This document shows, one piece after another, positions 8,736 to 46,903 of a stretch of DNA of 48,952 bases. Below the pieces are notes generated by a model. That model did not search any database and was not told the origin of the DNA. It saw nothing but the letters and a program-made list of their open reading frames with translations. The DNA is from an uncultured virus (IMG/VR IMGVR_UViG_3300005259_000041) (taxonomy: Duplodnaviria; Heunggongvirae; Uroviricota; Caudoviricetes): IMG/VR virus record IMGVR_UViG_3300005259_000041, one strand, 5' to 3'. Made by a program: the position numbers and the translations under genes. Each line of letters opens with the position of its first letter. The first letter of the stretch is position 1.

Positions 8736-9125
8736 ATGGATAAAGTGCAGATATATAAGGCAAAATTGATTACTCAGTACCTGCAAGATTTAGGCGAGGT
8801 TGAAGAGGCTTTAATTAATAGCCCTAAAAAGCTATCCCCTGAACTTGTAGATAAAATGTCCAATCTCCTGTATATGGACGTCACCCCAACTTGTGACGTC
8901 TGCACGTGGTCGTGCAGAGAAGACGACTTCTTGCAGCCTCACTGCTTTATGGCTAGTCTAGCCGCTACTGGCGTGAGGCATTTTTTACATTTATACTGTA
9001 TTACTGACGGCCAAAAAGCCGCAAGGAAACAAGTCCTAGATCAGATTCCTAGAGTCATTCTGAGTCTAATGGAGGTGCGTGGGCAGGTTGCCGCGCAATT
9101 TGGAGTAAATGATGAGACTGTTTAA
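8736..9125 (+). CDS. Cys4-family protein (expanded family)
   Basis: CDVCTWSC...HC, C-terminal VILSLMEVRGQV helix. Confidence 0.65.
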   Translation: MDKVQIYKAKLITQYLQDLGEVEEALINSPKKLSPELVDKMSNLLYMDVTPTCDVCTWSCREDDFLQPHCFMASLAATGVRHFLHLYCITDGQKAARKQVLDQIPRVILSLMEVRGQVAAQFGVNDETV

Positions 9126-9429
9126 GATTTCTAGAGACGTCCTCAATTTGAGCCCCACATTTAATCCGACTGTCATTAGTCAGATGTTTCCGCCCGGGCA
9201 TCCCAATCAAGACGAAAAGAAGAAATATCAAGAAGCTATAGGCTTCTACTATGCTATTTCTGCGCAGACTCGTGGATCGGATCAGGCCACAAAGGCCAGA
9301 ATATTTAATGAATGCGGTAAGCTTTTAAATGACATTAAGACTGAGCCATTAGATTCGCTTGCCCTAAAGTTGAATGCTAAGATAGAAGAAATTAAGGGTA
9401 TGAAACTCAGCGTTCGCCCTTTGAAATGA
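9109..9429 (+). CDS. Hypothetical protein
   Basis: Coupled ORF with GGAG RBS. Confidence 0.65.
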   Translation: MMRLFKISRDVLNLSPTFNPTVISQMFPPGHPNQDEKKKYQEAIGFYYAISAQTRGSDQATKARIFNECGKLLNDIKTEPLDSLALKLNAKIEEIKGMKLSVRPLK

Positions 9430-9441
9430 CAGGAGGAAAGA

Positions 9442-10032
9442 ATGTCAACAATCTCAACCGCGTCTGTAGGGGATTTTCCGCACACCTATAGTAGTGGCTC
9501 TTATACTAGCGGAAACATAGACATAGATAACAATTGTACCTATACTACCACCACGGGGGCTACGTGGGGGACGCCCTATACGATTACCGCACCGACCTGG
9601 GGCACTAACACCTGGACCGCCACTACCATTCTCCCGGGCGGAGCAGAGGCGATGGTGGACGTTATAGATGGGTGTGCGCTGCTTAGCATTCTGTTCAGTG
9701 ATGCGGCAGCTACGGCTAAGGCCCTAGAGAAGACTCTCCGGCTCAACTATAAACATAAAGACGAAATTGGCGAACGGGTCCGTGCAGCCGCAATTAGCAA
9801 GGAAAACGCAGCGTTGACGCTTCCTTGGCTGTTGGCTTATCTTTTTGCTAAGCGCGCCGACCATGAGGCTTGCGCTACATATGTGGAAGAGGTCTGTCAG
9901 GAAAAGTTTATCAAAAATGGATCTCTTACTTTAGTCGGTTCCTCTGAAAGTGTCTGGAGCGTATTCGCTAGCTATGAGGGCGATTTGGTGCAGCTCTCAT
10001 TAGAGTTTTCTGCCTACTGCCAAACGCTGTGA
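9442..10032 (+). CDS. Hypothetical protein with Thr-rich N-terminus
   Basis: AGGAGG RBS, 196 aa. Confidence 0.7.
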   Translation: MSTISTASVGDFPHTYSSGSYTSGNIDIDNNCTYTTTTGATWGTPYTITAPTWGTNTWTATTILPGGAEAMVDVIDGCALLSILFSDAAATAKALEKTLRLNYKHKDEIGERVRAAAISKENAALTLPWLLAYLFAKRADHEACATYVEEVCQEKFIKNGSLTLVGSSESVWSVFASYEGDLVQLSLEFSAYCQTL

Positions 10033-10038
10033 GATAAT

Positions 10039-10227
10039 ATGAAAATCAATCTTAACATAGACATTACTGAAAAGCAATTGGAGCAGTTGGAAGCCGAGGC
10101 TTTAAGAAGCTTTAATGATTGGAGCGATACGTCTGCTCGGCCCACGGCTAAGGCGGAAGATTATTGGCCGACGCCGTTAGAGCTGTTTGCGATGCGACTG
10201 CTTCTGTTTGAGATAACAAAGAAGTAA
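10039..10227 (+). CDS. Hypothetical protein
   Basis: 62 aa, followed by hairpin 10239-10275. Confidence 0.55.
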   Translation: MKINLNIDITEKQLEQLEAEALRSFNDWSDTSARPTAKAEDYWPTPLELFAMRLLLFEITKK

Positions 10228-10294
10228 ACGATAAATATCAGCCGCCATGAAGCTATTTATGTTTTATGGCGGCTGTGTTGCGCATGGGCACAAG

Positions 10295-10323
10295 TTGACA
10301 ATTTTCCCAACAAGGGTTATATT
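10295..10323 (+). promoter_or_regulatory. Sigma70-type promoter
   Basis: TTGACA-N17-TATATT. Confidence 0.8.
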
Positions 10324-10341
10324 ATTTACGATGGAGGAAAC

Positions 10342-16473: not shown

Positions 16474-17451
16474 TTACTCCTCCTCATCTAATTCGTCTTT
16501 TAGTCTTGCCAAAACAGATAGAGCCAGGTCTAATTTAGCTACCTCTGTTTCTTTCCCATGCTTATCCAGGGAATTAGCCGTCACATATAGCAAATTAAAT
16601 ACTCTTTGATTTAGCTTGGTTGTGTAGCCAGGATACTGTGGGTCCACATCGTCTCCCTTTGTAAACACTGGCTCTAGCTTTCTTATGCCTTGGATGTTTA
16701 CGTCGTCCGTGGCCCCAGTTTCTTTAGCCAAAATTTGCCATGCCAGCATTAAATCCGACTGATCTTCTGCCTGGAGCTGGTCGCCAAAGGCGGCGCTCTC
16801 TAAGTCGGCAATTTGGAAGGGGGAGAGCCCAACGAGGAATTCCGTTAGTCTTTTAATGTTTGTCGGGCCAAACTCTCTGACCGCAGCCAGAACCAAGTCT
16901 ACAGTTTCGGTGTACGGGTCTACTGTGTCGGCTCTGACAAGCATTGTCGTGGCCGAATCCAACGCATCTGCCTTCTCGTATTCTCCACACTTATCTAGGG
17001 CATTAGATAAGTTAATAAGCCAGGCTATAGCATTCACGTTTTTCTCCTCAAGCAAGGTCCTGTTTTTCATCTGGTCAATTGTTGTAATTAACGCGCTAAG
17101 CCTATTGATTTCGTTTTGGGTCATGTACTTAAGTTTCTCATCCTGACCCTGCATGTCTTGGGTGCGTAGGAAATGGAGGTGCTTGAGTTGATAACGGCGC
17201 TTAGCATCCCGTAAAACGTCTTTAACGGCCTCTGGAGCGGCTTTAGAGACGGTTTTGATGTTCCCTACCGCCTCCATCAGATTTTCCTGGCTGAGGACCT
17301 CTGAGTAGCGTCCGCCGTTCTGTAGGTTGTATACTAAATTGCCCCTGATGGTTTCCAGTGCCCCCGCCAACATAAATATGGCTTCTTCCAAATCTGGATT
17401 GTGCATCTCTGGGAGGGTAGGTTGTGCAGGGAGAGTAGCCGCTATTCTCAT
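16474..17451 (-). CDS. Hypothetical protein with two (S/A)NxLDKxG...D repeats (possible virion protein)
   Basis: LSNALDKCGEYEKADALD and TANSLDKHGKETEVAKLD; TATTAATA immediately upstream. Confidence 0.7.
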   Translation of the reverse strand: MRIAATLPAQPTLPEMHNPDLEEAIFMLAGALETIRGNLVYNLQNGGRYSEVLSQENLMEAVGNIKTVSKAAPEAVKDVLRDAKRRYQLKHLHFLRTQDMQGQDEKLKYMTQNEINRLSALITTIDQMKNRTLLEEKNVNAIAWLINLSNALDKCGEYEKADALDSATTMLVRADTVDPYTETVDLVLAAVREFGPTNIKRLTEFLVGLSPFQIADLESAAFGDQLQAEDQSDLMLAWQILAKETGATDDVNIQGIRKLEPVFTKGDDVDPQYPGYTTKLNQRVFNLLYVTANSLDKHGKETEVAKLDLALSVLARLKDELDEEE

Positions 17452-17529: not shown

Positions 17530-17727
17530 ATGACAATAGACACGACAATTGATTGGGGACCGCCCAGGAACATTAAAACAACTTGGTGTGCTTGGAGGTT
17601 TAGGGCTATCGGGGAGGCTTTAGTTAATCCCATTCGCCAGCCTTTAGATTATGAGGGTTTAGCGCGTAAGATATTTCGGGTAGAACCGCTCCCCAGTAAA
17701 CCTAAGGATGATTCAGATGGAACTTGA
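17530..17727 (+). CDS. TW-motif microprotein with capsid-like C-terminal peptide
   Basis: NIKTTWCAWRF then LVNPIRQPLDYEGLARKIFRVEPLP. Confidence 0.6.
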   Translation: MTIDTTIDWGPPRNIKTTWCAWRFRAIGEALVNPIRQPLDYEGLARKIFRVEPLPSKPKDDSDGT

Positions 17728-18094
17728 TTTCCTGCAATATTTAGCCAAACACAAGCGTGAGATGTCCACGGCCCAGAGGGAGGGCCTGGGTAAGTTCTTA
17801 CGGAATTTAGACTGTGCCTTGGGGCTGTATTTAGAAAAGCCAGATGAGGAATCAATTAAAACGGTGCTTGCTGCCTTAGCTGGCCCCAGGAAGACTTTCC
17901 AAGAAATGAAATATCCCAACTGTAATTTAACTATGTTCTTTCGTTTCTGCGATGGGTGTCCGTGCGCGGAAGATGCGCGAAGGTCATGCAGCGCCATCAG
18001 GGCCTGGTCTCAATTATTGCGCGGTGGCGAGTGTCTCCCCGAAGTTTTTCTTCATTTCATGCAACTTAAAGCCCAACTAGAAGTAATAAAATAA
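17717..18094 (+). CDS. Cys4-family protein
   Basis: C...FCDGCPC...C; EVFLHFMQLKAQLE terminal helix. Confidence 0.65.
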   Translation: MELDFLQYLAKHKREMSTAQREGLGKFLRNLDCALGLYLEKPDEESIKTVLAALAGPRKTFQEMKYPNCNLTMFFRFCDGCPCAEDARRSCSAIRAWSQLLRGGECLPEVFLHFMQLKAQLEVIK

Positions 18095-19218: not shown

Positions 19219-19247
19219 TTGACAATCAACGGTCTGGTAGTTATATT
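19219..19247 (+). promoter_or_regulatory. Sigma70-type promoter
   Basis: TTGACA-N17-TATATT. Confidence 0.8.
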
Positions 19248-19263
19248 TCATATGGAGACGGAA

Positions 19264-19572: not shown

Positions 19573-19820
19573 AGCACGCTTGGAAGCTTCCATTAGAAGT
19601 AAATTTCGATTTAACTCAGCCCCTAGCGATATATAAGCCTAGTGATTTGGCTTTACTCCAGCAGCTAGCGGAGCAGTTGCCTAGTGTTATTTTGGATTGG
19701 ATAGAAGAAGACAAGGTTGGGGCAGAGATGAAAGTCTTCTTTGTGTCGGCAATTATGCATTCTGATCGAATGAACCTGCCTCCGCTCCAAGAAAGAATGA
19801 GGTCTTTGGATTTAATATGA
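19569..19820 (+). CDS. Hypothetical protein
   Basis: ATGA-coupled ORF. Confidence 0.6.
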   Translation: MKHAWKLPLEVNFDLTQPLAIYKPSDLALLQQLAEQLPSVILDWIEEDKVGAEMKVFFVSAIMHSDRMNLPPLQERMRSLDLI

Positions 19821-20155
19821 TTAAGAGAAATGTTAGGGCGGCGATTCAAAGAATAGAAGCTGCCATTCCAGATGTTGAGAAAATTAAACGCGCTATTGCT
19901 GTGTTTGCTGGCAAGGGTATGGAGTGCCGCTTGTGGCCGCGCTTCAGTTCTGTGCACCAGGAACGGGTTGACTTCTGCAATAACTGCCCCATGCGTTTAG
20001 GGAGGAATAAAAATCCTGCGTGCGGATTCTCCCTTCACTTTCAAAGCTCTCACAAAAAATGGAGCGATGGAGAGCTTGTTTTGCACACAATAGAGCTTCT
20101 TTCCTATATGAAAGCGAGACTGGGAAATGACGAAATATCTTCAAAGGATTATTAA
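19817..20155 (+). CDS. Cys4-family protein
   Basis: C...FCNNCPM...C; DGELVLHTIELLSY. Confidence 0.7.
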   Translation: MIKRNVRAAIQRIEAAIPDVEKIKRAIAVFAGKGMECRLWPRFSSVHQERVDFCNNCPMRLGRNKNPACGFSLHFQSSHKKWSDGELVLHTIELLSYMKARLGNDEISSKDY

Positions 20156-20462
20156 TTTACGTAAATCTGGTGAATTAAACGTTGAAGCGTTCGATAGCGT
20201 TTATGAGCAAGCTTCTCAAGAGGATAAGAAGAAACAACCATTCGCATCTTTGTTAATGGGCTGCAATCAACGGTGTAGTGAATGCGTGTTTTATTCACTA
20301 GATGAAATGAAGAGGAGCCCCTGCATAGTCGGGGAGTTGGCTTTCTCCCTTAAAGAGATGAAGGCATACGACGATGAGGGTCAAGCCTTTAGGTGTTTAA
20401 AACTTATCCAATTCCAAGCTGCCTTGGAGATATATGAATCCAATAACTCGTTCAGGCGCTGA
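20127..20462 (+). CDS. Cys4-family protein
   Basis: CNQRCSEC...PC; CLKLIQFQAALE. Confidence 0.65.
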   Translation: MTKYLQRIINLRKSGELNVEAFDSVYEQASQEDKKKQPFASLLMGCNQRCSECVFYSLDEMKRSPCIVGELAFSLKEMKAYDDEGQAFRCLKLIQFQAALEIYESNNSFRR

Positions 20463-20859
20463 AACAACTCAGGATCGAATAGATCGACTTAGAGAAAAGG
20501 GAATTGCCAAAGACGCCCTCCTTGTCGCGTATAGGGCTATAGAAGTGCTTAAGTCTGATCCGACGGTCGCCAATGCCATAGCGCTTACCTACGCCCTGTA
20601 TCCCAATTATCGTAAATATAGTGGTCAATACGAGTCTGGTTGTGCTATATTGCATGCCCACGGAGCAGAGAAGTGGAGCTGTAATAAGTGTAGGTGGTCG
20701 CACAACAGACAGTGCGACTTATTGTCCTTGGTTAGTATTAGCTCTACCCCATCTGGGTGTGAGGACATGTTGGGGCGAATTTTGATGGCTGCTATTGAGA
20801 TGCAAGTAATATTTAGAATTCATCCCGCGTTTGCTTGGGCATTTATGGGAATGCCTTGA
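20434..20859 (+). CDS. Cys4-family protein
   Basis: GC...CNKCRW...C; RILMAAIEMQV. Confidence 0.65.
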   Translation: MNPITRSGAETTQDRIDRLREKGIAKDALLVAYRAIEVLKSDPTVANAIALTYALYPNYRKYSGQYESGCAILHAHGAEKWSCNKCRWSHNRQCDLLSLVSISSTPSGCEDMLGRILMAAIEMQVIFRIHPAFAWAFMGMP

Positions 20860-20888
20860 CTTTAATAAATTTTATATTATATTGTTGT

Positions 20889-21057: not shown

Positions 21058-21066
21058 GTAACAAAA

Positions 21067-22637: not shown

Positions 22638-23255
22638 ATGAGTTTTGTTGATTATTCTGTCTTCGGCCTTGGGCTAGCGACGCTTTTGGGTGTTGGTATT
22701 GGCGTCTCTCTGGTGCGTTGGGCGATTCATTTAAGTGGCAATAAACATAAACGCAAGGCTTATTTAGAGGCCAGCCAAGCTTTTCATAAATTCCGAGACG
22801 AAATAGTCAATATACAAATACCGTTTGCTGAACTGGAACCGCTACGCCAGCACCTTCTCACTGTCGCGCTAAATCATAATTTTTGTGTGTTGACGGAGAG
22901 ATATAGGTTTATGGTAGTCAACGGTTCATTAATTGCTAACCGTTCGCGGGTGGCTACCTGTGGGACTTGCATGGCGTTTCCTGACTGCATGGTGTATCAG
23001 GCTCTTTGTGATCGAGTCCATGCTGTGAGCCATAAGCGGTATAATGAGTTTGTAGACGACTATCGCTTCTCTACTGTACTGAATGCCGTGGAGGGGTCGC
23101 AGATTAATATTCTGCGCGTCGCTCTTAAGTATTTACCAGACCAGCATCTCCTCTTGCTGCTCCTCCAGTTGTCTGCCGCATTTCAAGCTGAAGAGGTGAG
23201 CTTTTGGGACCAAGAAGAGAAAATAGTGCGATGGAAGTTTTTAAAACATAAGTAA
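22638..23255 (+). CDS. TM-anchored Cys4-family-like protein
   Basis: N-terminal TM; FC...CGTC...C; LLLLLLQLSAAFQ helix. Confidence 0.65.
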   Translation: MSFVDYSVFGLGLATLLGVGIGVSLVRWAIHLSGNKHKRKAYLEASQAFHKFRDEIVNIQIPFAELEPLRQHLLTVALNHNFCVLTERYRFMVVNGSLIANRSRVATCGTCMAFPDCMVYQALCDRVHAVSHKRYNEFVDDYRFSTVLNAVEGSQINILRVALKYLPDQHLLLLLLQLSAAFQAEEVSFWDQEEKIVRWKFLKHK

Positions 23256-23301: not shown

Positions 23302-23874
23302 ATGGTAGACCCGACTGATGTGACAAAATATGATAGAACCGATGAGGAACTGGAAGAGTTTATTATATTCTCTATCCTGGTGGCAGGGCACAACGCAAAG
23401 AACACTGCAATGGGCCTGGAGCGCTTCCTGGGAGCCTTCAGAGGCACGAGCCCGTTCCAGGTGGTAGAGGGACATGCAAAAGCCGGAACTCTCGCCCTAG
23501 CCCTTCAGAACGCGGGAATCGGATGCCACTCCATTAGGGCAAAATCGCTCCAGTCGCTTTTGGATAGTAGAATTGATTTGAGATCCTGCACCGTAGAGCA
23601 GCTTGAGCAGGTTTCTGGTATAGGGCCGAAGACATCCAGGTTTTTCGTACTACACTCTAGGCCCAATGTTAGGATAGCGGCTCTGGATGTGCACATCTTA
23701 AGATATCTTAAGGGTCTCGGTTACGATGTTCCGACCGTCACCCCCACGGGCAAGAGCTACAAGAGGATTGAGGATGTATTTTTGCAGGAAGCGGACAAGA
23801 GTGGGATGAGCGTGGCTGAGTTTGATTTGTTTATCTGGAATATGAGTACCGCGAAGAGGACTAAAGATGTGTAA
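23302..23874 (+). CDS. HhH-superfamily DNA glycosylase/AP lyase (Ogg2-like)
   Basis: LEQVSGIGPKTSRFF HhH with catalytic Lys, ALDVHILRYL Asp, Y..IE..F, FDLFIW. Confidence 0.8.
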   Translation: MVDPTDVTKYDRTDEELEEFIIFSILVAGHNAKNTAMGLERFLGAFRGTSPFQVVEGHAKAGTLALALQNAGIGCHSIRAKSLQSLLDSRIDLRSCTVEQLEQVSGIGPKTSRFFVLHSRPNVRIAALDVHILRYLKGLGYDVPTVTPTGKSYKRIEDVFLQEADKSGMSVAEFDLFIWNMSTAKRTKDV

Positions 23875-24073
23875 GGCTTTGGATAGACTAATCGAACATC
23901 CTGAACTTCTAGAGGACGACGCGTTAGGGATTGAATTCTGCCGCCCTATGTGCGATGGGTGCTATACGATTATGAATTGGCAATGCGAGTGGATTGATCT
24001 TCCCGCTGCTCAGTTTCTCTTGGTTTGCATTGAGAAGAAAGCAGAGCTAGAAGTTACTTCTTCGGATTCTTAA
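23867..24073 (+). CDS. Minimal Cys4-family protein
   Basis: FCRPMCDGC...C; FLLVCIEKKAELE. Confidence 0.6.
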   Translation: MCKALDRLIEHPELLEDDALGIEFCRPMCDGCYTIMNWQCEWIDLPAAQFLLVCIEKKAELEVTSSDS

Positions 24074-34699: not shown

Positions 34700-34700
34700 T

Positions 34701-35177
34701 CTATTTCTTCATCTCTAAAAGAGCAGCCAGTTCCAGAAAGGTAAGGATACTGGTTTCATTCATATTGGCATTTATAACAATGTCACAGTCTATAAGGACA
34801 TAAGTCCCACGAGAAGAGTCAGTATACATATTATGGTTGGATATGGCTTCTCTCAGTATTCTAGTTTTACCCCATGGACATTTGGAACAGTCTAATATGC
34901 CACTATCCGTAAGTATACAATTCGGATTCTTTATCTCATTATGCCGGGTGATACTTCCCCGTGCGGCTCTCCATCGTTGATTAGGATTAACGACTAGTTC
35001 AGCACGATTATAACGCTGTTTATACTGTTCGTTTAAATGCTTAAACCATTGATTATGCTCTTCTTCTGCACTGTCTACCGGCTCGGGAATACACGGGTTA
35101 AAGTCGCGTATGTACGAGTGTATACGGGTGAGAGTGGCATCGAGGATTTTAATCTGGTCTTCTGTCAGGGCTCTCAT
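34701..35177 (-). CDS. Cys4-family protein heading the microprotein operon
   Basis: NC...DCSKCPW...DC; TSILTFLELAALLE. Confidence 0.7.
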   Translation of the reverse strand: MRALTEDQIKILDATLTRIHSYIRDFNPCIPEPVDSAEEEHNQWFKHLNEQYKQRYNRAELVVNPNQRWRAARGSITRHNEIKNPNCILTDSGILDCSKCPWGKTRILREAISNHNMYTDSSRGTYVLIDCDIVINANMNETSILTFLELAALLEMKK

Positions 35178-35192: not shown

Positions 35193-35221
35193 AATATAAT
35201 TTAGAAGGGGTCAATTGTCAA
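35193..35221 (-). promoter_or_regulatory. Sigma70-type promoter of the microprotein operon
   Basis: TTGACA-N17-TATATT on minus strand. Confidence 0.8.
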
Positions 35222-36352: not shown

Positions 36353-36823
36353 ATGGAGAACGAAGTACCTCTAGACAATCCGTTCTTTTACGCGTATCTT
36401 AAGGCACTAGTCCGGTTCGTGGCAGACCCTACGCAGCAGCGTCTAGATGCTGTCAATCACCAAAGGAACTTGCGCTCAGAGAAGACGTGGAAAGCCCCAG
36501 TGGCAGAACATGGATACTGCCACCCCTTTGGGGACTATGCGTCTGAGAATGGAGTAAGCTGCATAGACGGGAGTGACATGGATGCTCGGGAGGAAGGCGA
36601 GGGGCGTTGTTGTCCTATGTTAAGCGCTTCTACTTCCCTTCTCAGACAGGAATGTCAACTCGCGTGTGGCTTCTCTGCGGACGTGGTGCTGAGAGTTATC
36701 GAGACTCTGGCGGCATATGAGGCAAGGTATCCAGACTGGCCCCGGTGGAAAGAGTTAAAGGAGGAAGACCATGGGACAGGCGAAACTGAGGGGGACCAAG
36801 GAACAGCGGGTCGAGCAGGCTAA
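36353..36823 (+). CDS. Cys4-family-like protein
   Basis: YCHPF...C...CCPM...C; VVLRVIETLAAYE. Confidence 0.65.
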   Translation: MENEVPLDNPFFYAYLKALVRFVADPTQQRLDAVNHQRNLRSEKTWKAPVAEHGYCHPFGDYASENGVSCIDGSDMDAREEGEGRCCPMLSASTSLLRQECQLACGFSADVVLRVIETLAAYEARYPDWPRWKELKEEDHGTGETEGDQGTAGRAG

Positions 36824-36941: not shown

Positions 36942-36954
36942 GAGCAAGAAGGCA

Positions 36955-37957: not shown

Positions 37958-38182
37958 GAGGCAAGGCCATGGTACTGAAGCCGGGAAGTCGTCTGCCTCA
38001 TATCCGGGTCGACACCCTGGACGTGAGCGAGGCCATGTACGAGGACGTGCGGGAGAAGATGGACACCCTTCGAACTCGCACTCCCCCCAAGCCCACCCTG
38101 TATCGCCTGGAAGGAGGCAACGAGGAGTAGTCGTCATCCTGATACTGGGCCCGAACATGTCATACTGAAAGGGAGGTGACAG

Positions 38183-38470: not shown

Positions 38471-38534
38471 TATCCAGAGCCAGCCAGTATCTTTAAAGTC
38501 GTGAGATACTGGCTGTAATGTGGATACTGGATTA

Positions 38535-39225
38535 TACCACCGCATGTCGAAACCGGGGCGCAGCAAAGCCCAGCCAGTTTACCCTGGCTACGTGACGGTG
38601 GATAAAGGGTAGGTCCAGTGATACTGCACATCACCTAATCCCCGGCGTGGACAGCATGTCTGAGACGAGGCTCTTAGACCAGATGTGACGGTACGAGTCG
38701 CCGCCTTATGCGACGACGGAGAGCCGCTTTAGCGACTCTAAAGACTGGGCACCTAAACAGCAGGCGGGTGGCTAGTTTAGGAAGATACAGCATTAACCGC
38801 TGCATGTAAGGGTATGGATCCCCGTTGGTTGGAAACAAATCCCAATCAAGCGTGACGGCGGTTAAGTGAGGGTAGGCTTAGCGAAGGTTGATACTGCATG
38901 CGCACGGCACTCTACGGCCAAGTCGGGGCGTGACAGTATAATCCGTGCTGAAGCAGGCGGAAGGCTAAGCGGTTAGACGGCAGGAGGGTGGCCAGTCTAA
39001 TGAATGATACTGATTCAACTGTCGCATGCATTCCCAGTGTATGGGGAGACTTATATTCCCATACATCAAAAGGTGGATGGCGAGCGATAGATGCTCACCT
39101 ATACCAGCGTGTCGACAGTAGGTAGGTTGGCCGTTCGTTGTTACTGTAGATGCGAGAGAAGTCTCTCCCTACGGTAAAGAAGAAGGGGCCGACGTGATAG
39201 CAGCAGGAGGGTGGCGGCTATCTAT
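38535..39225 (+). ncRNA. Candidate large structured ncRNA made of three tandem A+B hairpin modules
   Basis: No sense ORF of 60 aa or more; repeated loops GGTAG (x3) and GCAGG(C/A)GGGTGGC (x3) closed by covarying stems. Confidence 0.75.
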
Positions 39226-39240
39226 AGAAAGGGGGTGCGG

Positions 39241-39558
39241 ATGGTACAACAGTTGGACATTCATCAAGCAGTAGCAGCAGCGAAGCATCTCATTCGCTTC
39301 CCCCACAGTAGAAAGGCGTGGGAGACACTGGCGAGCAACACTTATCCCATGCATGGTTCGGCTGATGCAACCTGCCCCTTTGACTGTCAGGATTGTCCGT
39401 TGAGAGGGGGCTGTTCTATTCTTAACCTGCCTGAGTTTGTCTGTGGTCGGACTACCCATCGGGAGGCGACTAAGACAAATAAGATGGGAGAGGTCATCCT
39501 CCTCCTCATCCAGTATGTGGCTTATGTGGAGTCTAAGGGGGTGCTAGATGAAACATAA
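39241..39558 (+). CDS. Cys4-family protein
   Basis: AWETL...CPFDCQDCPL...VC; GEVILLLIQYVAYVE. Confidence 0.75.
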   Translation: MVQQLDIHQAVAAAKHLIRFPHSRKAWETLASNTYPMHGSADATCPFDCQDCPLRGGCSILNLPEFVCGRTTHREATKTNKMGEVILLLIQYVAYVESKGVLDET

Positions 39559-39567
39559 GGGTACATC

Positions 39568-39810
39568 ATGATTTTCACCTTCATAAGCGTAAGAGCGCCT
39601 GGCAAGAAAATCATCATTGATTCCATTGCCAAGGACAAGGGCACCTTTCAACCCGGCTCGTATGTACCCACCAACGAGCAGGAGTTACTGGGGGTTCTTG
39701 AGGAAGCCTACGAGATTCAGGAAGATCTCATATGGCAAATGGAGCACCGACCAATGTGGGCACGGGCTAATGGCTACGATATCATCTACGGTAATGGGGA
39801 GGAGCCTTAG
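39568..39810 (+). CDS. Hypothetical protein
   Basis: 80 aa in operon. Confidence 0.6.
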   Translation: MIFTFISVRAPGKKIIIDSIAKDKGTFQPGSYVPTNEQELLGVLEEAYEIQEDLIWQMEHRPMWARANGYDIIYGNGEEP

Positions 39811-39825
39811 TTAAGGAGGTACGCC

Positions 39826-40203
39826 ATGGAGTTCGGATGGAGAGACTATCGGGTGTCTGGCCCGGTGTGGAACGAGAGGGGGCTCTTTTTCAGTTTCATC
39901 ACACCGGCCGATTGCGTGGACCCCTGCCCCTGCTGCAACGAACTGTCGGTGCACTTGTCGGCTGCCATCGTGGAGGAGATTAACAACTCCTCCAACATTC
40001 ACTACCTCGACATCGAGCGCGTTGACGGTGGTGGGGCCGGTGGCGGGGAAGCCTTCGGGAACCGGGGGCGCCTCAAGGACATCGTGAAGGACCCGGAGGA
40101 GGGAATCATCTTCCGCTATTACAATGGGCGGAAGAAGGCGTACACAGTAACCCTCTCTCATGAGAAGTGGCAGGAACTGAGCCACGTTCGGATGCCCCTT
40201 TAG
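39826..40203 (+). CDS. Hypothetical protein
   Basis: AAGGAGGT RBS, 125 aa. Confidence 0.7.
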   Translation: MEFGWRDYRVSGPVWNERGLFFSFITPADCVDPCPCCNELSVHLSAAIVEEINNSSNIHYLDIERVDGGGAGGGEAFGNRGRLKDIVKDPEEGIIFRYYNGRKKAYTVTLSHEKWQELSHVRMPL

Positions 40204-40392
40204 TATGGGAGGAGCCTTAATCTTTATCCTGGCCCTTTCCTCTTCCTGAAACCCAGTATACATTCTTCCCCCTCCCTCTAAAATGGGAGAATCGCATAGT
40301 CGCAGCCAGTATCAAATCCATGTGTTGATGTACAGGATAAGATACTGACTGTTCTAATGCCTCGCTATCTCCCCTTTCAATAAGGAGGATGG

Positions 40393-40779
40393 ATGGGAAA
40401 TCCGTGGGTGAAAGAACAAGTCGGGATTGTGAACCAACTGCTGAAGGACCCAGATAATGTCCAACTCTGGGAACAGTTGGCCTGTATTACGGGGACTCAA
40501 CGCCTAGACGACAATACTACTGTCCAATGTTGCCGGTTTGACCCATACCGAAATGCCATTGAGTTAAGCCGGTGTGATTCCTGTCCCCTGAGGGTGGACA
40601 GAACGGACGAGATGAGAGGACTGGGAGGGCCAATAGCACAATACCTCTGTCGTAGGTATCGTGGTCAGCAAACCTGGAACATTGAGTCTGGTGAAATCGT
40701 CCGCAGGCTGCTGGAGTTCCTGGCCTTTATCCAGGTCGAGCCTCCAACCCTGAAGGTCAAGAAGAGCCGTGCCCGCTAG
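40393..40779 (+). CDS. Cys4-family protein (tandem copy 1)
   Basis: LWEQL..ITG...C...CDSCPL...YLC...GEIVRRLLEFLAFIQ. Confidence 0.8.
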   Translation: MGNPWVKEQVGIVNQLLKDPDNVQLWEQLACITGTQRLDDNTTVQCCRFDPYRNAIELSRCDSCPLRVDRTDEMRGLGGPIAQYLCRRYRGQQTWNIESGEIVRRLLEFLAFIQVEPPTLKVKKSRAR

Positions 40780-41119
40780 ACGACCAAAGACACCAGCAGA
40801 AACGGCTTGGCAAGTTCGTCTGGCAAAGGAACTGCTAGATGAACTACATAACCCAGTCCTATGGGCACAGTTAAGTGATATTACTGGCTATCGGTATAGA
40901 GGCAATACGCCAGTAGATTACTGTCCAGACTTGCCCGATGGAGCCAGATGTAAGCATTGCCCCTTGAGAACTGGGGACGTTCCACCTGAGATGAGCAGGA
41001 TGGATCAGTATCTTTGTCGTCCCCAATGGATTAACGGGGCATTGGTTGGGGGTTCTGGCCTGGAAGACGGAGAGTTAACCCGAAGGCTGCTGGAGTTCAT
41101 AGCCTTCATTCAACTATAG
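40769..41119 (+). CDS. Cys4-family protein (tandem copy 2)
   Basis: LWAQL..ITG...C...CKHCPL...YLC...GELTRRLLEFIAFIQ. Confidence 0.8.
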   Translation: MPARRPKTPAETAWQVRLAKELLDELHNPVLWAQLSDITGYRYRGNTPVDYCPDLPDGARCKHCPLRTGDVPPEMSRMDQYLCRPQWINGALVGGSGLEDGELTRRLLEFIAFIQL

Positions 41120-41146
41120 GAGACTGCCTATGAAGCACGGTGTACC

Positions 41147-41506
41147 ATGAGCAGATTTAGGGCTTGTCCAAAGGGTCAAGTCAAGGCTGCACAGTATCTT
41201 CTTCATCACCTGACAGACCTTGAAGCCTGGAAGGAGTTGGAGAAAGTTACTGGAGATACTGGCTCGTTCGAGAAGGGCGTACACCGTTGCAATGACCCGA
41301 TGTTTCCCGAAGGGCCACGAGGGAAGTCGATTTACTGTGACCATTGTCCACTCAACCTGGTTCTCACCGGGCGTTTTGATAATGGCCACTACCTCTGTCG
41401 GTACAAGCATCCGAACTACACCCGCTTTACTCTGTCGGACGGTGAGATAACTCTGAAACTCCTGGAGTTTATCGCATACGTCCAAGCGACTTTCCCGAAC
41501 GCATGA
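41147..41506 (+). CDS. Cys4-family protein (tandem copy 3)
   Basis: AWKEL..VTG...C...CDHCPL...YLC...GEITLKLLEFIAYVQ. Confidence 0.8.
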   Translation: MSRFRACPKGQVKAAQYLLHHLTDLEAWKELEKVTGDTGSFEKGVHRCNDPMFPEGPRGKSIYCDHCPLNLVLTGRFDNGHYLCRYKHPNYTRFTLSDGEITLKLLEFIAYVQATFPNA

Positions 41507-41765
41507 TTACCTGGGCTGAACGGAACGCTAAGACNNNNNNNNNNNNNNNNNNNNNNNNNNNNNNNNNNNNNNNNNNNNNNNNNNNNNNNNNAAGCGTGGC
41601 TGCCTTCAATGTCCCCTCTTCATCAAAGAGTGTTTGCGCGATGGGGGCCAAACACAGGCCGACAGTTACATCTGCTGCAAGGGAATCTGGGACATGAGGA
41701 TAGACTTAAGTGAGGGCGAAATCACTCGTCGCTTGCTAGAGTTTATCGCCTATGTCCAACTCTGA
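41503..41765 (+). CDS. Cys4-family protein (tandem copy 4; spans N gap)
   Basis: After the gap a different frame reads CLQCPL...YICC...GEITRRLLEFIAYVQL*. Confidence 0.7.
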
Positions 41766-42000
41766 AAGGAAGGATACTGCGATGGCGAACATCAGTCAGC
41801 GTCAGCGTGCGGCGGAGCGTCAGGTTTCGGTTTCCAAACTGCGCCGCGACTCGCTCAAGACCAACCGCAGTTTCGGGCAGACGACGAAAGTCAACATGCC
41901 CAAGAAGAGCAAGGTCCGCTAGTATCCAGAATCAGTATACTGGCTTTAACATAGGTCAGTATACTGAATTGTGGACACCAGCCGCTAGAAAGGAGGGAAG

Positions 42001-42531
42001 ATGAAATCGTTGCGGGGACTTCGGAGCGTCGGTAGTGGCTACTTGAAGGAAATGTTCAATGATCCCAAGTATGCCCGGTTCGTCGTGGAGTCTACCATCA
42101 AGTTCATNNCGAAGTTTCCTGATGCTGGGCTGATTGTTACTGGCCTGAGCGGAAGCCTGCTGGGGTATTCCATTATGCTCCAGGGTGAAATCCCCGTAGC
42201 CTTCGTCCGTAAGCCCTATAGGGTCGAGCAGTCACACGGAATGCCCATCGAAGGTTACATGGTGGAGAAGGTCATCTTCTTCGATGACTTAATCTCCGGC
42301 GGAGGTACCTTCGACTTCATCGGGAAGAGCATCGAGAAGTGGAATAAGAACCACTCCTCGCCGACCACTCTCAAGGCGGTCTTGCTCTGGAACCACTACG
42401 ACAGTGTCAATGCTGGAGTCACGGGTTCTCATCCCTTCTATCGCCTGGGAACTTGGCGGGTTGGATTTGAGAGATGGGACCCCGATGAGAGTGTCTGGAA
42501 CAAACTCAAGACCCCCAAGATTCGGAGGTGA
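42001..42531 (+). CDS. Type I phosphoribosyltransferase-domain protein
   Basis: IVTGLSG, AFVRK...SHG, PRPP-binding loop VIFFDDLISGGGT. Confidence 0.8.
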   Translation: MKSLRGLRSVGSGYLKEMFNDPKYARFVVESTIKFXXKFPDAGLIVTGLSGSLLGYSIMLQGEIPVAFVRKPYRVEQSHGMPIEGYMVEKVIFFDDLISGGGTFDFIGKSIEKWNKNHSSPTTLKAVLLWNHYDSVNAGVTGSHPFYRLGTWRVGFERWDPDESVWNKLKTPKIRR

Positions 42532-42532
42532 C

Positions 42533-42790
42533 ATGAACCAAAGGCAGAGGAAACTGGAAGTCGTGCGGGAGTGCTATCGGAAAGTCATCCTCGACCAGGG
42601 TAAAGCCTTGAAGTTGAGGGACCGGCTCCAGAGAATCTCCCAGTTGCACGGGCGAAATGCCGATGGTTCTATGGTCTTTCTCGTCCGGGTCTGCAACTGC
42701 TGCTGGAAGAACCCGAACCACGACCCGCACTACGAAATCCTCAAGGAGACCGAGGTCCGCAACATTCCCCATTACGACGTTCTTTCGTAG
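42533..42790 (+). CDS. Hypothetical protein
   Basis: GGAGGTG RBS before MNQRQ. Confidence 0.65.
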   Translation: MNQRQRKLEVVRECYRKVILDQGKALKLRDRLQRISQLHGRNADGSMVFLVRVCNCCWKNPNHDPHYEILKETEVRNIPHYDVLS

Positions 42791-42800
42791 GGAGGGAATC

Positions 42801-43250
42801 ATGGTACTGGCAGACTTTCATCCTGGCGACCGAGTTATGGTCGTGAAAGAAGAGAACTGGGGAAATCGCCAGAGACTCGTGAGGAAGACTGGGGTGGTGG
42901 TCAAGACCCTGAATTGTCACGAGGATGGCGTGGTGATGGTTAACATGGACGACAGGAGGTATAGGCAGCAGACCTTCTATCCGTCCCAACTCAGTATCCT
43001 TGCTCCCTGCAACATTCCCGATACTGGGGAGTTTACGCTACTGCCCGACACGGTAACCGACGTGGACTTTCGGCCCGGAGATAAGGTTCGGGTTCTGAAA
43101 GACCCTCTGATTTTTCTGATTGGGCAGCGGGGGACAATCCAGGGGCTTCGTATCATTAACACGGAGATACTGGTCGACGTGAAGATGGACGACCCGAGAC
43201 TTCCCCTTCGGAACTTTTACCCCGAGCAGTTGGAGAGGGTTCGGGAGTAG
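42801..43250 (+). CDS. Tandem KOW/SH3-like domain protein
   Basis: Two repeats DF.PGD.V.V...G.V/I...V.MDD.R...FYP.QL. Confidence 0.7.
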   Translation: MVLADFHPGDRVMVVKEENWGNRQRLVRKTGVVVKTLNCHEDGVVMVNMDDRRYRQQTFYPSQLSILAPCNIPDTGEFTLLPDTVTDVDFRPGDKVRVLKDPLIFLIGQRGTIQGLRIINTEILVDVKMDDPRLPLRNFYPEQLERVRE

Positions 43251-43260
43251 GATTTATACT

Positions 43261-43336
43261 GGGCAGTTCGACCAGCGGCGAGGTCCCGGTCCTCATAAGA
43301 CCGTCGACGGGGGTTCGAATCCCTCACTGCCCACCA
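43261..43336 (+). tRNA. tRNA with CAT anticodon (elongator Met or Ile2)
   Basis: Acceptor GGGCAGT/ACTGCCC, anticodon arm CGGTC-CTCATAA-GACCG, GTTCGAAT, encoded CCA; lacks initiator features. Confidence 0.9.
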
Positions 43337-43337
43337 T

Positions 43338-43412
43338 GGGCCCGTAACTCAATGGTAGAGTACCGCCCTTTTAAGGCGGGAGTTGAGGGTTCGAGTCCCT
43401 CCGAGCCCACCA
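43338..43412 (+). tRNA. tRNA-Lys(TTT)
   Basis: Anticodon arm CCGCC-CTTTTAA-GGCGG, GTTCGAGT, encoded CCA. Confidence 0.92.
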
Positions 43413-43450
43413 CTTATCTTACACAGGCGAAAGCCAGGAAGGAGGTAACC

Positions 43451-43828
43451 GTGCCGTGCAATTGCGGTAATTGCCATTTCGGATTCAACTGTTCCAAAGA
43501 GTGGCAGGCTCTCCACCCTGGAACGACTTGGTGGGCCTGCGAGTTCTGTGGACTCTATCAGGCTTCGGCTCCCATGTGCAACGGGTGTGAGATGCAGGAG
43601 GATAACAAGCCCGGCATGAAGCGGTATGAGTTTAAGCGGCGCTCGCCATTCTCGGGTATGCTCCACTCCATGGTTATCCAGATGACGGAGCGGCAGTTCG
43701 CGGAACTCGCCCAGCCCAGCGGTCGGCACATTCAGGACATTCTCCCCCACTGCACACCCGACGAGAGGGAGTTCATCATGACCGGTATCACCCCCGAGGA
43801 ATGGGAGCAGACCTTCGGGAAGAAGTAG
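43451..43828 (+). CDS. Zinc-finger phage protein
   Basis: GGAGGT RBS and GTG start; several CxxC; IQDILPHCTPDEREFIMTGITPEEW tail. Confidence 0.7.
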   Translation: MPCNCGNCHFGFNCSKEWQALHPGTTWWACEFCGLYQASAPMCNGCEMQEDNKPGMKRYEFKRRSPFSGMLHSMVIQMTERQFAELAQPSGRHIQDILPHCTPDEREFIMTGITPEEWEQTFGKK

Positions 43829-43835
43829 TTACTTT

Positions 43836-43921
43836 GCGGCTGTGGTGGAATGGCATACACTACAGACTTAAAATCTGTTGCCCGTAAGGGATTGGGGGTT
43901 CGACTCCCCCCAGCCGCACCA
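43836..43921 (+). tRNA. tRNA-Leu(TAA)
   Basis: Acceptor GCGGCTG/CAGCCGC, ACAGA-CTTAAAA-TCTGT, long variable arm, CCA. Confidence 0.92.
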
Positions 43922-44150
43922 GCCCTTCCCAGTATCTTATCCTCGTCCGACCCGAGAAGATACTGCTTACTGGTATCCCGCAATGGGATACTGTACAATC
44001 GTAGGGCCCACGATATGGCATAGGAAGGATAAGCCTTACCTACCTATTGTGGGGACGGAGAGTAGTACCGCAATACTGGATATTGGTGGGTCCAGAATAC
44101 CGGTACTTGCGGCAACCCTGAAACTGGACTCAAATCAGGAGTTACATCAG

Positions 44151-44552
44151 ATGAACATCTTCAAGACCAAGGGCATCGGCGTCGCGTTCACCGTGAAGGT
44201 CACCCGCAAGCCCAAGTTCGTCGAGGGCAAGCCCGAACTTTCCCAGAAGGGGATCTACTCCCTGACGGTGAAGGGCGGAACCAAGACCTACACGACCACC
44301 TGCACGGGCAGCGGCGAGTTGTTCGCCAAGGCCTGGGCGCTCCTCGCGGCCCACTTCCCCAAGGCGTACGAGAAGGCCACCGCCATCGCCAAGGCCCAGC
44401 GCACCGAGAACCGCGCCAAGGCCAAGGCCGTGCGGAAGGCCAAGAAGGCGGCCGCCGCGCCGTCGGACGTGAAGTCCCTGCTCACCCTGCTCAACCGGCA
44501 GGGCAAGGGCAAGGGCAAGGGCAACGGCAAGATCGTCGCCCTCTTCCTGTAG
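44151..44552 (+). CDS. Lys/Ala-rich basic protein, paralog 2
   Basis: AGGAG RBS before MNIFKTKG; KFVEGKPE, KAKKAAAAP, LLTLLNRQ, GNGKIVALFL shared with 35804..36196. Confidence 0.85.
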   Translation: MNIFKTKGIGVAFTVKVTRKPKFVEGKPELSQKGIYSLTVKGGTKTYTTTCTGSGELFAKAWALLAAHFPKAYEKATAIAKAQRTENRAKAKAVRKAKKAAAAPSDVKSLLTLLNRQGKGKGKGNGKIVALFL

Positions 44553-44934
44553 TCGGAACTTAACCGACTACCACAATCTGAATTAACTCATGGGGAAGCC
44601 CTTAGTCGGGCTTCCTCAATCCTGCCAACACCCTATCGCTGGAGGGGCAGGGTAAGCGGACTTAGTACAGTTCGCAGGCGATGGGGTATAGAGTCTAGAG
44701 GGAGGTGCATAATCAAAACAGGCGGGAAGGTGGTGGTCTCGCGCTCCCTAATCGTTATGACGGAGGAGGGCAAGGTGATTTGTACTTGCGCTCCCATCTT
44801 CGGTGAACTGAGTATCGGGCTTGAGGAAGCCAAAGAAAACGCCCAGTTCATTGCGGATGCCTTCAACGCCGTCAACAAGAGAGCGCAGACCTCCAAGGCG
44901 AAACCCAAACGGAAGAAGTGACAGGAGGTTTACG

Positions 44935-45198
44935 ATGAGCGAGAAGAAGGGAACCCTCGGCAGCGTTCTGGCGAAAGCCCTCCACAACACCCCCATCGAG
45001 GCTCGCATCAAGGAGGAGAAGTTCAACGCCTCCCAGCGCGAGTGGCTCAAGGACATCCTCATGCGCGACCTGCGTCTGGTCGAGGCGAAGGTCCTGACCG
45101 ACGCCATCCACGAGGCGTCCATCCGCATCAACAAGGGCGAGAACGAGTGGCGCCTGCTCCGCGACAAGGCCGTGCGGGCGCTGTCGCTCCGCAAGTAG
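44935..45198 (+). CDS. Hypothetical protein
   Basis: AGGAGGT RBS, high GC3. Confidence 0.7.
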   Translation: MSEKKGTLGSVLAKALHNTPIEARIKEEKFNASQREWLKDILMRDLRLVEAKVLTDAIHEASIRINKGENEWRLLRDKAVRALSLRK

Positions 45199-45199
45199 T

Positions 45200-45514
45200 A
45201 TGTTTCTGGCAGAACAGCACATCCTCCTTAGCGAACTGGTTGAGACGTACATCGACACATACCGAGACAGGATGTCGATGCGTCTCGCTGATGGCAGGAC
45301 CCCCACTGAAGTTTTGGAAGCCTTGACGAATGTCGATTTAGATGACCCAGAGGCGGCCAAGAAGTTTGATGCAATCCTCGGCAACCAGATTTGGACTACT
45401 TACCAGTGTGGGGAATGCTTCAAGCAGTTTGAGAGGGTGGTCTTTCTCCAACAGAGCGACCACAGGGGCATCTGTGAAGATTGCCTCAAGAGCGCTCTGG
45501 GCCTCTTTGCTTAG
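45200..45514 (+). CDS. Zinc-finger protein
   Basis: QCGEC...ICEDCLKSAL. Confidence 0.7.
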   Translation: MFLAEQHILLSELVETYIDTYRDRMSMRLADGRTPTEVLEALTNVDLDDPEAAKKFDAILGNQIWTTYQCGECFKQFERVVFLQQSDHRGICEDCLKSALGLFA

Positions 45515-45709
45515 GCACATCTAGTCTACTCCGGATAGGTCGGCCAGGTACATTCGCCGGGATTATCTTGGAGGTGGGATAGGCATTGGCATAGGGCTAT
45601 GTGGGTGTGAACGGTCGCAAGGCCCGGAGTGACCACATGTCATTAGTTATGTCATGTAAGCCCTATCCCTTTAAGGCTTTACCAGTATCAACCTTCGTAG
45701 GAGACAGAC

Positions 45710-46468
45710 ATGAGAAGGCGCAATCCTAAGGTATTGGTACTGGATGGTGAGGTTGTCGGGAAGCCGAGTGAAGTAGACTGCGTTAACCACAGAGCCGTCG
45801 AGTATATCAACAGGGACAGATTTAACGCCAGCACCAATAAGATGAAACTGCACACCTTCATCTACGACTTCCTCATCCAGTCTCTCATCTCAATTGGCAG
45901 CTGGACTCCTTCCCCGAAACTGCTCTCGCTCTGTGGTCCAGAACTCGAAGGGCATCATGCACTGTGGATGGAAGCCCTCAAGCGTCACGACAAGAAGGAC
46001 TCCACTCCCACATTCATCGAGAGAAGCAGCGCAGTTATCCAGGAAAACAATCTTATCGGCCAGGCCGTCAAGTGCAAAGCGACACTGGTCGAGGGAAGTG
46101 TCGAGGATTACATCGATGGGTCCTTCACCTGTCTCGACCTCGATTACTGTCAGAACTTCAAATCAATTGCCAAGACGCTCTTCCCTTCTCTGAAGAAACG
46201 GACACTCCCTGTCGTATTCGCTCTCCATATTACTGGGGGATACAGAGGGAAGGGGAAGAACGGAGTTGCTGGCGGTGTTACCAGTGAGGAGCGTGATGCC
46301 ATCCTGTACCGTCTCGACCGCCTTATCGGCAGGAAGATGTATGGGAAGGGATACGCCTGGGAAGAGCCGACGAAAGAAATCCTGGGCGGAAAGTATTGTG
46401 CTCCGATGAGATGCGTCCTCCGGTCTTATCATAAAGACTACGCTCGGATTGCTCGGGAACTTTCTTAA
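45710..46468 (+). CDS. Hypothetical protein, possible SAM-dependent methyltransferase fold
   Basis: LLSLCGP / FIER / EGSVEDY / CLDLDYC spacing is Rossmann-MTase-like. Confidence 0.5.
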   Translation: MRRRNPKVLVLDGEVVGKPSEVDCVNHRAVEYINRDRFNASTNKMKLHTFIYDFLIQSLISIGSWTPSPKLLSLCGPELEGHHALWMEALKRHDKKDSTPTFIERSSAVIQENNLIGQAVKCKATLVEGSVEDYIDGSFTCLDLDYCQNFKSIAKTLFPSLKKRTLPVVFALHITGGYRGKGKNGVAGGVTSEERDAILYRLDRLIGRKMYGKGYAWEEPTKEILGGKYCAPMRCVLRSYHKDYARIARELS

Positions 46469-46528
46469 TCACAGCGAGGTGAGGATGGAGAACAAGCAGC
46501 CTCAAATCCCCGCAAGGAAGGGGGATAA

Positions 46529-46903
46529 TTGACAACCAAAGCCGAACGGGAGATACCGGCTAACATGAGGGAGTACGTCAAAGCCGCTCGGTCCATCTTC
46601 AGGGACGAGATAAAGCAATACTTGGCGAACCCCTCAAGAAAGAATCTGTCTACCTTTCTCCAGTCAAAGGATAGGATGGTATGGCGAGAGCGGGAAGATG
46701 AGCCCGAGAAGGACAGATGTGTGTTGCTGCCCTTCACCTCATGCCTGGATTGTCCTTGCATGGAGAACGATGAGTATTGGCGGATGGCCGGTATGTCCCA
46801 TGGGTTCTGCCACTTATCCGTTGGTAGCGAGATAGTTGGTGAGCCGGTATCTTTAACCGTGCCTTTAATCCAAAAGGTACTGGACATGATGGGGCCAGAA
46901 TGA
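46529..46903 (+). CDS. Cys4-family-like protein
   Basis: RCVL...SCLDCPC...FC. Confidence 0.55.
   Translation: MTTKAEREIPANMREYVKAARSIFRDEIKQYLANPSRKNLSTFLQSKDRMVWREREDEPEKDRCVLLPFTSCLDCPCMENDEYWRMAGMSHGFCHLSVGSEIVGEPVSLTVPLIQKVLDMMGPE

Follow-up and report, generated by a model that had tools for sequence, protein, structure and literature searches.

The only comparable printed case found for the proteins described here is the Zn-ribbon expansion of Bacillus phage G, which comprises roughly 35 copies and which its authors call unprecedented (Viruses 13:63, 2021, PMC7824862). The present analysis concerns the Cys4 family, a set of small four-cysteine proteins encoded in a 48,952-nucleotide stretch of DNA (the window) from an uncultured virus of the Caudoviricetes (IMG/VR record IMGVR_UViG_3300005259_000041). 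The window belongs to a phage-like contig of 172,952 bp and is syntenic, at 30-95% amino-acid identity, with the region 134-185 kb of G001, a 332,730-bp IMG/VR contig of a jumbo phage, complete according to CheckV, which was located through a pattern from the close alignment A3. Sequence comparison firmly indicates that the open reading frames (ORFs) in question are paralogues of a single orphan family, whose products are small cytoplasmic proteins of about 70-160 amino acids (aa); the 49-kb window has 14-15 copies and the complete 333-kb relative about 43.

The two cases share a jumbo-phage-specific expansion to tens of copies of a small Cys-based protein, metal-binding there (PMC7824862) and putatively so here, and in both a role in regulation or DNA binding has been proposed. 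Phage G has a plain two-knuckle ribbon, whereas the Cys4 proteins have a predicted three-helix frame with a single C4 site, and the Cys4 family belongs to another, uncultivated phage clade. When the profile of the 46-sequence family alignment A4 was run against the whole phage G genome (NC_023719, 497,513 bp), there were no matches at an expect value (E) ≤ 1; as a control, the A2 profile located nine places in G001 by the same method.

Two further known systems resemble the Cys4 proteins more in their build than in their genomic expansion. The Wbl proteins (PF02467), which also occur in phages, are likewise small and mostly helical, with four conserved cysteines that include a CxxC. Wbl proteins have the spacing C-x2-C-x5-C and a G[VI]WGG turn motif, whereas the smallest spacing between the third and fourth cysteines (C3 and C4) is 6 in the Cys4 family, against 5 in Wbl, and no G[VI]WGG turn was seen here. 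The Whib model matched nothing in G001 at E ≤ 1, its control being positive in 7 of 14 genomes, and none of the 46 aligned members at E ≤ 0.01. The ZAS anti-sigma factors (zf-HC2, PF13490) are small helical bundles of similar size with a Cys-rich Zn site, which is putative in the Cys4 proteins, but their motif is HxxxCxxC and that of the Cys4 family is C..CxxCP..C. Again, the zf-HC2 model had no match in G001 at E ≤ 1 (control positive in 11 of 14 genomes) or among the 46 members at E ≤ 0.01, and the only anti-sigma row returned by Foldseek was 6pfv_E, at E 8.9. The best structural rows were generic three- and four-helix bundles of the PDB, which cover most of the model of 41147 described below.

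Membership of the family was judged from several kinds of comparison, in which each ORF is named by its start coordinate in the window. An earlier note, made from the letters alone, had listed 15 ORFs as one family, and helical ends around a Cys cluster are visible in the translations of 14 of them. Within the window, BLASTP linked 40393, 40769 and 41147 mutually (E 3e-14 to 3e-9, 27-39% identity) and also joined 19817 and 39241. A hidden Markov model (HMM) of the three mutually linked copies, searched against 373 window ORFs, found the fragment 41634-41765 (3e-10), 39241 (5e-7) and 19817 (6.5e-4). An iterative HMM search over every window and G001 ORF of 40 aa or more, together with reversed decoys, was carried through six rounds at an inclusion level of E < 0.01; no decoy fell under this threshold in any round, and the list was still slowly growing at the end (53, 55 and 56 ORFs in the last three rounds).

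Because the E-values of sequences already included are circular, leave-out runs were performed, in which the candidate and its G001 orthologue were removed from the model and 4,022 sequences including reversed decoys were searched. Under this procedure 19817 (6e-9), 20434 (9e-6), 20127 (8e-5), 17717 (2e-4) and 46529 (7e-4) were recovered, 34701 and 36353 were borderline (2e-3 each), and 22638 (0.19), 4510 (0.27), 23867 (0.45) and 8736 (0.48) were not significant; the best decoys reached 0.017-0.08. The G001 orthologues of 17717, 4510 and 23867 gave 1e-5, 0.018 and 0.034, respectively.

The distant candidates were compared by hhalign with A4, from which doubtful candidates had been left out, in a set of 110 window ORFs of 50-260 aa that were each paired with the G001 orthologue where present. 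The probabilities were 93.9% for 23867, 88.2% for 4510, 73.1% for 34701, 73.0% for 8736 and 62.4% for 36353, against at most 17.3% for the other 96 ORFs; nine ORFs already inside A4 gave 97-99.9%, which is circular. The expression C-x2-26-CxxC-x5-29-C matched 11 of 15 listed or added ORFs and, among the 78 other window ORFs with lengths of 60-220 aa, just one; CxxCP occurred in none of those 78. In G001 the same expression matched 33 of 43 members and 12 of 254 background ORFs.

On these sequence comparisons, nine of the listed ORFs (40393, 40769, 41147, 39241, 19817, 20434, 20127, 17717 and 46529) are homologous, and 23867, 34701 and 36353 are probably members, with 8736 as a possible one, mainly through profile-profile comparison. 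The idea of one paralogous family with a conserved helical frame is thereby upheld, and the list of 15 is right for 13 entries. It contains one ORF in the wrong frame (41503) and one non-member (22638), which hhalign (0.9%) and the HMM (0.19) rule out, and it misses 4510. It is quite improbable that the five distant ORFs 8736, 23867, 34701, 36353 and 4510 are unrelated to the rest and owe their CxxC cluster and helical ends to convergence or chance. This alternative can point to the leave-out values of 0.27-0.48 for 8736, 23867 and 4510, which decoys at 0.02-0.08 equal or better, to the deviating Cys order of 8736 and its more helical model, and to 22638, which resembles the members by eye, yet fails all tests. 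Against it stand the hhalign gap between 62-94% for all five and 17.3% for the best of the 96 others, the rarity of the C4 pattern outside the family, the leave-out values of 34701 and 36353, and the presence of both an [FIL]x[ND]P turn and a terminal IE..A..E/Q helix in each of the five.

The common signature is a helix, an [FIL]x[ND]P turn, a second helix, the cluster C-x3-25-CxxC(P)-x6-28-C and a terminal amphipathic helix. In A4 the second to fourth cysteines (C2, C3 and C4) are invariant, and at least 90% of the 46 sequences have the first (C1); all four are aligned in 43 of the 46, and a Pro follows C3 in 37 of the 46, which bears out the C...CxxC(P)...C motif described from the letters. 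The loops flanking the cysteines vary in length from 3 to 25 residues between C1 and C2 and from 6 to 28 between C3 and C4 (median 12), in keeping with the hypervariable loops noticed earlier. Exceptions to the pattern are 8736, which has another order, and 4510 and 36353, in which the Cys set is degenerate.

AlphaFold2 (AF2) modelling covered 41147 and 8736. For 41147, modelled with A4, the mean predicted local distance difference test score (pLDDT) was 78.5 and the predicted template modelling score 0.75. Three helices at residues 8-20, 25-34 and 98-115 have block pLDDT values of 94-96 and form the three-helix frame (the N-terminal helix pair and the C-terminal helix), the loops have values of 51-65, and the Cys positions coincide with short strands and turns. 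For 8736, where the alignment held two sequences, the model (pLDDT 70) is all-helical with seven helices; it retains the end helices, adds four more and is unconfident in the Cys region. The 8736 model is compatible with a related frame, short of proof.

Four conserved cysteines in a cytoplasmic protein are most simply read as a metal site; membrane segments are not obvious in the member sequences, the non-member 22638 being the exception. We infer that the four cysteines hold a structural metal, most likely Zn2+. An Fe-S (iron-sulphur) cluster, which would make the proteins redox- or iron-sensing modules or electron carriers, is unlikely. Wbl proteins bind [4Fe-4S] through a spaced C...CxxC...C in a small helical protein, and the Cys4 proteins have a comparable arrangement with all four cysteines aligned in nearly all A4 sequences; however, the Wbl spacing C-x2-C-x5-C was never seen among C3-C4 distances of 6-28, and the Whib model found no match. 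In addition, the knuckle-like turns around CxxCP in the 41147 model would be more typical of structural Zn sites, and the degenerate Cys sets of 4510 and 36353 should be better tolerated by a structural site than by a cluster. The isoelectric points (pI) range from 4.2 to 9.5, with 43% of 58 proteins acidic and 38% basic, and this heterogeneity argues against a uniform nucleic-acid-binding role.

The core of the family in the window includes a tandem array. It comprises copy 1 at 40393..40779 (+), with BLASTP E 3e-14 to 40769; copy 2 at 40769..41119 (+), which has a GTG start and E 4e-13 to 41147; copy 3 at 41147..41506 (+); and a short copy 4 at 41592..41765 (+), which has no N-terminal helices and whose start lies under an N mask at 41535-41591, one of six N-masked stretches in the window. 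The previously listed ORF 41503-41697 has one Cys and crosses this mask in the wrong frame, the true copy 4 being in the frame that ends at 41765. The G001 orthologue of copy 4 (177634-177984) is N-terminally short too. A 56-aa ORF at 41752-41922 matches the basic C-terminal tail of this orthologue, so that the domain and the tail of copy 4 are in different frames in the window, as in a frameshifted or a split gene. A further core member, 39241..39558 (+), starts at an internal ATG of an ORF that opens at 39211 (GTG).

Outside the core, 17717..18094 (+) is a member that starts at an internal ATG of an ORF opening at 17708 (ATG). The member 19817..20155 (+) is the fastest-diverging, with 30% identity to its G001 orthologue; 20127..20462 (+) is a CxxCV variant with 67% identity to its orthologue, 20434..20859 (+) is a CxxCR variant, and 46529..46903 (+) has a TTG start and an A2-profile E of 3.9e-4. 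Four ORFs are classed as probable members. Of these, 4510..4947 (+) has a 65-residue N-terminal extension, an FIDNP turn, a degenerate CxxC (HC..HC..C) and the terminal helix GEL..LLTCIEFIAAFQ; 23867..24073 (+) is short, with 68 aa; 34701..35177 (-) has 158 aa and the cluster C87..C97xxC100P..C131, which is kept in the G001 orthologue; and 36353..36823 (+) is an acidic protein with CC-P as the degenerate form of its CxxC and an hhalign match over 39 columns. The possible divergent member 8736..9125 (+), the first gene after an early-type promoter, has the spacing CxxC-x3-C-x9-C and is 68% identical to its G001 orthologue. The non-member 22638..23255 (+) combines a hydrophobic segment at the N-terminus with a CxxC..C..C cluster.

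In G001 the final HMM search found 43 members, nearly all on the plus strand, which correspond to 43 of 500 greedily chosen ORFs or about one in ten. Among them are seven in an array at 174.9-178 kb and groups at 196-198, 206-218, 228-236 and 251-254 kb. Orthologues were found there for 8736, 17717, 19817, 20127, 20434, 23867, 34701, 39241 and the tandem array; no counterpart was found in G001 for 22638 or 36353, and of 46529 only the last 40 codons are present. Copy 4 is short in both phages, and a further copy in the G001 tandem array (175291-175590), additional to the about 43, has an in-frame TAA after about 30 codons and is likely a pseudogene, or else a case of read-through. These differences show that copies have been gained, lost, truncated and pseudogenised between the phages.

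In a tree built from 19 full-length core-type sequences, three subclades are well supported, and the terminal branches have a median length of 1.3 substitutions per site. In it, 39241 is paired with G001 174944 (support 85/86), and 19817 forms a clade with G001 153955 and the outside homologue P0013 (support 99/99). Because of this tree and the separate G001 counterparts of the copies, the tandem duplicates are regarded as old and as predating the split of the two phages. Four recent tandem copies had been proposed for 40.4-41.8 kb; the fourth copy exists, but at 27-39% identity the copies are not recent. Between the phages, the median identity of members is 56% (n=12) and that of other genes 67% (n=38). 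The difference, with p = 0.009 in a one-sided Mann-Whitney test, is driven by the core subfamily.

Substitutions at the first, second and third codon positions are 0.27/0.14/0.51 for 8736 and 0.24/0.15/0.50 for 17717, with a similar skew of about 0.25/0.15/0.50 for 20127 and 20434; in the array copies it is less marked (41147 0.32/0.26/0.46, 39241 0.37/0.28/0.47). This concentration in the third position indicates that these are real coding genes.

The family has few relatives. HMMER with the profile A1 of six core sequences, run against 1.84 billion representative proteins, returned 17 proteins at E ≤ 1e-3, of which four are window proteins, 12 are outside homologues of 99-142 aa and one (P0017) is a low-complexity repeat protein that was dropped from all alignments. 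None of the 12 outside homologues is longer than 142 aa, so that fused or longer forms were not found among them. A metagenome scan returned only contigs identical to G001, and cluster look-ups gave further relatives on contigs of 72,763, 32,052, 25,834, 62,257 and 105,967 bp. The outside homologue P0012 was not found among viral contigs, and a word-indexed search of 5.8 billion clustered proteins found no relative of 8736 beyond its G001 orthologue. The IMG/VR locus L001 matched the pattern EFIAYVQA by chance and bears no relation to the family.

Searches of curated libraries gave the same picture. For the listed ORFs the best scores against Pfam, PHROGs, NCBIfam and PADLOC were 11-19 bits, where the cut-offs are 22-600. 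Pfam (E ≤ 1) and PHROGs (E ≤ 0.01) had no meaningful match for the 14 ORFs with the family layout, and no Pfam family matched any of the 46 aligned members. The PDB sequence-profile search gave nothing under E 0.22, Foldseek with the 41147 model found nothing at E ≤ 0.001 in either the PDB or BFVD, and the VIA-align wide search was likewise without a meaningful match. In the ESM Atlas the best feature score was 0.86, under the 0.9 level; one row (0.85) named DUF5685, which was set aside as Pfam has no match. Among GenBank phages, relatives were found neither by megablast of the window and G001 nor by tblastn with the 325-aa ORF 16474-17451(-) and with 41147, the latter against 50,697 records; tblastn with ThyX or DnaJ also found no close phage.

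Literature searches found no description of the Cys4 family and, within the searches made, no curated library, solved structure or cultured phage was found to contain it. By sequence, the family is well established as restricted to one small clade of uncultivated jumbo phages, in which it is strongly expanded. Much of the unannotated sequence of a jumbo phage can in this way be taken up by one family that escapes standard annotation.

With at most one mismatch allowed, the window has 11 copies of the promoter-like motif TTGACA-N17-TATATT, where chance would give 0.27; the motif is often lengthened to TTATATT. In G001 there are 47 copies, which are clustered. The window sites begin at 8695, 10295, 18463(-), 19148(-), 19219, 22573(-), 22603, 25405(-), 27020(-), 30890(-) and 35193(-). 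The site 8695..8723 (+) lies 13 nucleotides (nt) 5' of 8736, the site 35193..35221 (-) lies 16 nt 5' of 34701(-), and the site 19219..19247 (+) heads a unit from 19219 to 21090 that contains 19817, 20127 and 20434 and has a terminator-like hairpin at 21067-21090. In G001 the position of the site is conserved for all three, with distances of 14 nt before the 8736 orthologue and 16 nt before that of 34701. That several members come first after strong promoters, as claimed earlier, is thus correct for 8736 and 34701(-), and the motif also directly precedes the non-member 22638. A look-up of sequencing runs for 39200-41500 listed none, RNA runs included.

The combined observations lead us to favour, at about an even chance, the reading that the Cys4 proteins are metal-stabilised binding scaffolds with variable loops, which serve as diversified binding modules for host interaction or regulation. 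In the 41147 model the C-terminal amphipathic helix packs back onto the N-terminal helix pair, and the metal, most likely Zn2+, would staple the variable loops to the rigid three-helix frame. Each paralogue could then recognise a different host or phage macromolecule and act in host take-over, regulation or counter-defence; some copies would be expressed from early promoters of the host sigma70 type, and most would belong to a long one-directional accessory arm. That the diversified surfaces reflect an arms race, as the earlier note expected, may be conjectured.

A bolder version, which we consider rather unlikely, takes the roughly 40 copies as a germline library of metal-stapled mini-binders, with a shared rigid three-helix frame and two hypervariable loops around a C4 site, each neutralising or redirecting a different host protein and together forming a broad-spectrum counter-defence repertoire that evolves by birth and death. 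Defence systems, polymerases, proteases and ribosome factors would be among the targets of such mini-binders, and the fold would be one without a known relative.

The main competing explanation, less probable than binding scaffolds though somewhat more so than a library of mini-binders, is that the proteins are transcription regulators. They would be DNA-binding factors, or modulators docking on host RNA polymerase or sigma and hence functional analogues of the Wbl- and ZAS-type Cys-rich sigma binders, and they would time gene expression in a phage without its own polymerase or sigma. Small helical proteins with four cysteines suit such a role, the phage uses sigma70-like promoters, and G001 has no match to Sigma70_r2 or RNA_pol_Rpb1_2 in searches that both had positive controls; the search of G001 for a T7-type RNA polymerase, however, had no working control. 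Besides the Whib and zf-HC2 results given above, this explanation is opposed by the structure searches, in which no helix-turn-helix or other DNA-binding fold was recognised, by the heterogeneous pI with its large acidic fraction, and by the number of paralogues, about 43 being many for polymerase modulators.

Several points weigh against the scaffold reading or limit it. First, the assignment of 23867, 4510, 34701, 8736 and 36353 rests mainly on hhalign with two-sequence or single-sequence profiles, and HMM drift is possible, reversed members reaching down to E 0.018 in the last iterative round. Second, the putative metal site is read from the conserved cysteines, and the 8736 model puts extra helices where 41147 has knuckle-like turns. 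Third, the promoter motif is absent from 36-48 kb of the window and from 170-239 kb of G001, where most copies reside, and therefore only a subset is demonstrably behind host-type promoters. Finally, the proposed role is deduced from the features above, and the accessory-arm context and faster divergence are equally compatible with regulators. Viral expansions this large usually mark the host interface, which makes the family a place to seek take-over or anti-defence mechanisms. A compact natural scaffold of three helices, one putative metal site and two variable loops might also be of interest for protein engineering.

Most copies in G001 lie in one arm, which was studied at 185-270 kb. A Pfam scan of 69 of its 183 greedily chosen ORFs, namely the non-members of at least 100 aa within one stretch, found ClpP, AAA and MoxR ATPases, an ankyrin-repeat protein, GNAT, NAMPT/NAPRTase, RtcB, DNA ligase and parts of ABC transporters, and no match to Pfam virion families among the scanned ORFs. 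At 220-228 kb this arm, which is rich in family copies, encodes a fusion of a substrate-binding protein with an OmpA-like domain as well as an ABC permease and an ABC ATPase. Genes for phosphoribosyltransferase and NAMPT/NAPRTase come next and make up a set that resembles NAD salvage.

A second paralogous expansion lies in the window at 28100-34700 (-), where about 20 head-to-tail small ORFs of 40-70 aa, the TW peptides, are found. Many of them combine an N-terminal (S/T)F.(D/E)W with a C-terminal TW.LW..Y-type motif, and few have G001 counterparts detectable by BLASTP. As stated earlier, a Cys4 member heads this run, 34701 being the first gene of the minus-strand TW-motif series. The family had also been named as a candidate partner of the TW peptides; the predicted complex of 34701 with the adjacent 40-aa TW peptide (34577-34699) scored 0.00 in a run made without controls, which gives no verdict, and beyond the shared run no evidence links the two.

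An element of about 400-800 nt is present twice in the window, at 35470-36276 and 44137-44551, and at the DNA level each copy is 66-77% identical to G001 169.0-169.5 kb. With little codon periodicity (0.23/0.21/0.30), it may be non-coding and possibly corresponds to the large non-coding RNA after which the earlier note placed one member; Rfam found no family in the window at 35200-39300.

At 21847-23255 the window has a minus-strand metallophosphatase gene and the plus-strand, Cys-containing 22638 gene, which diverge from back-to-back promoter-like sites at 22573-22631 and have no counterpart at the syntenic G001 position. Other gene products of the window are an IMPDH/GMP-reductase-like protein, DnaJ, ThyX, Hsp20, a pyrimidine-dimer glycosylase and a GyrB fragment with an intein. 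The IMPDH matches, at no more than 46% identity and scattered over phyla, are uninformative about the host. Near 36 kb the GC content of the window rises from about 0.40-0.46 to 0.50-0.56 (region 36000-48000), and in the G001 counterpart (170-190 kb) from 0.35 to 0.45-0.47. The GC-rich segment contains the tandem array and four tRNA genes at 42.3-43.9 kb, and no sigma70-type promoter motifs were found in it. At the other end of the window, in the GyrB fragment encoded at 36-2174, Pfam Intein_splicing covers residues 213-529 between the Toprim and C-terminal domains, and this ORF is 85% identical to its G001 copy.

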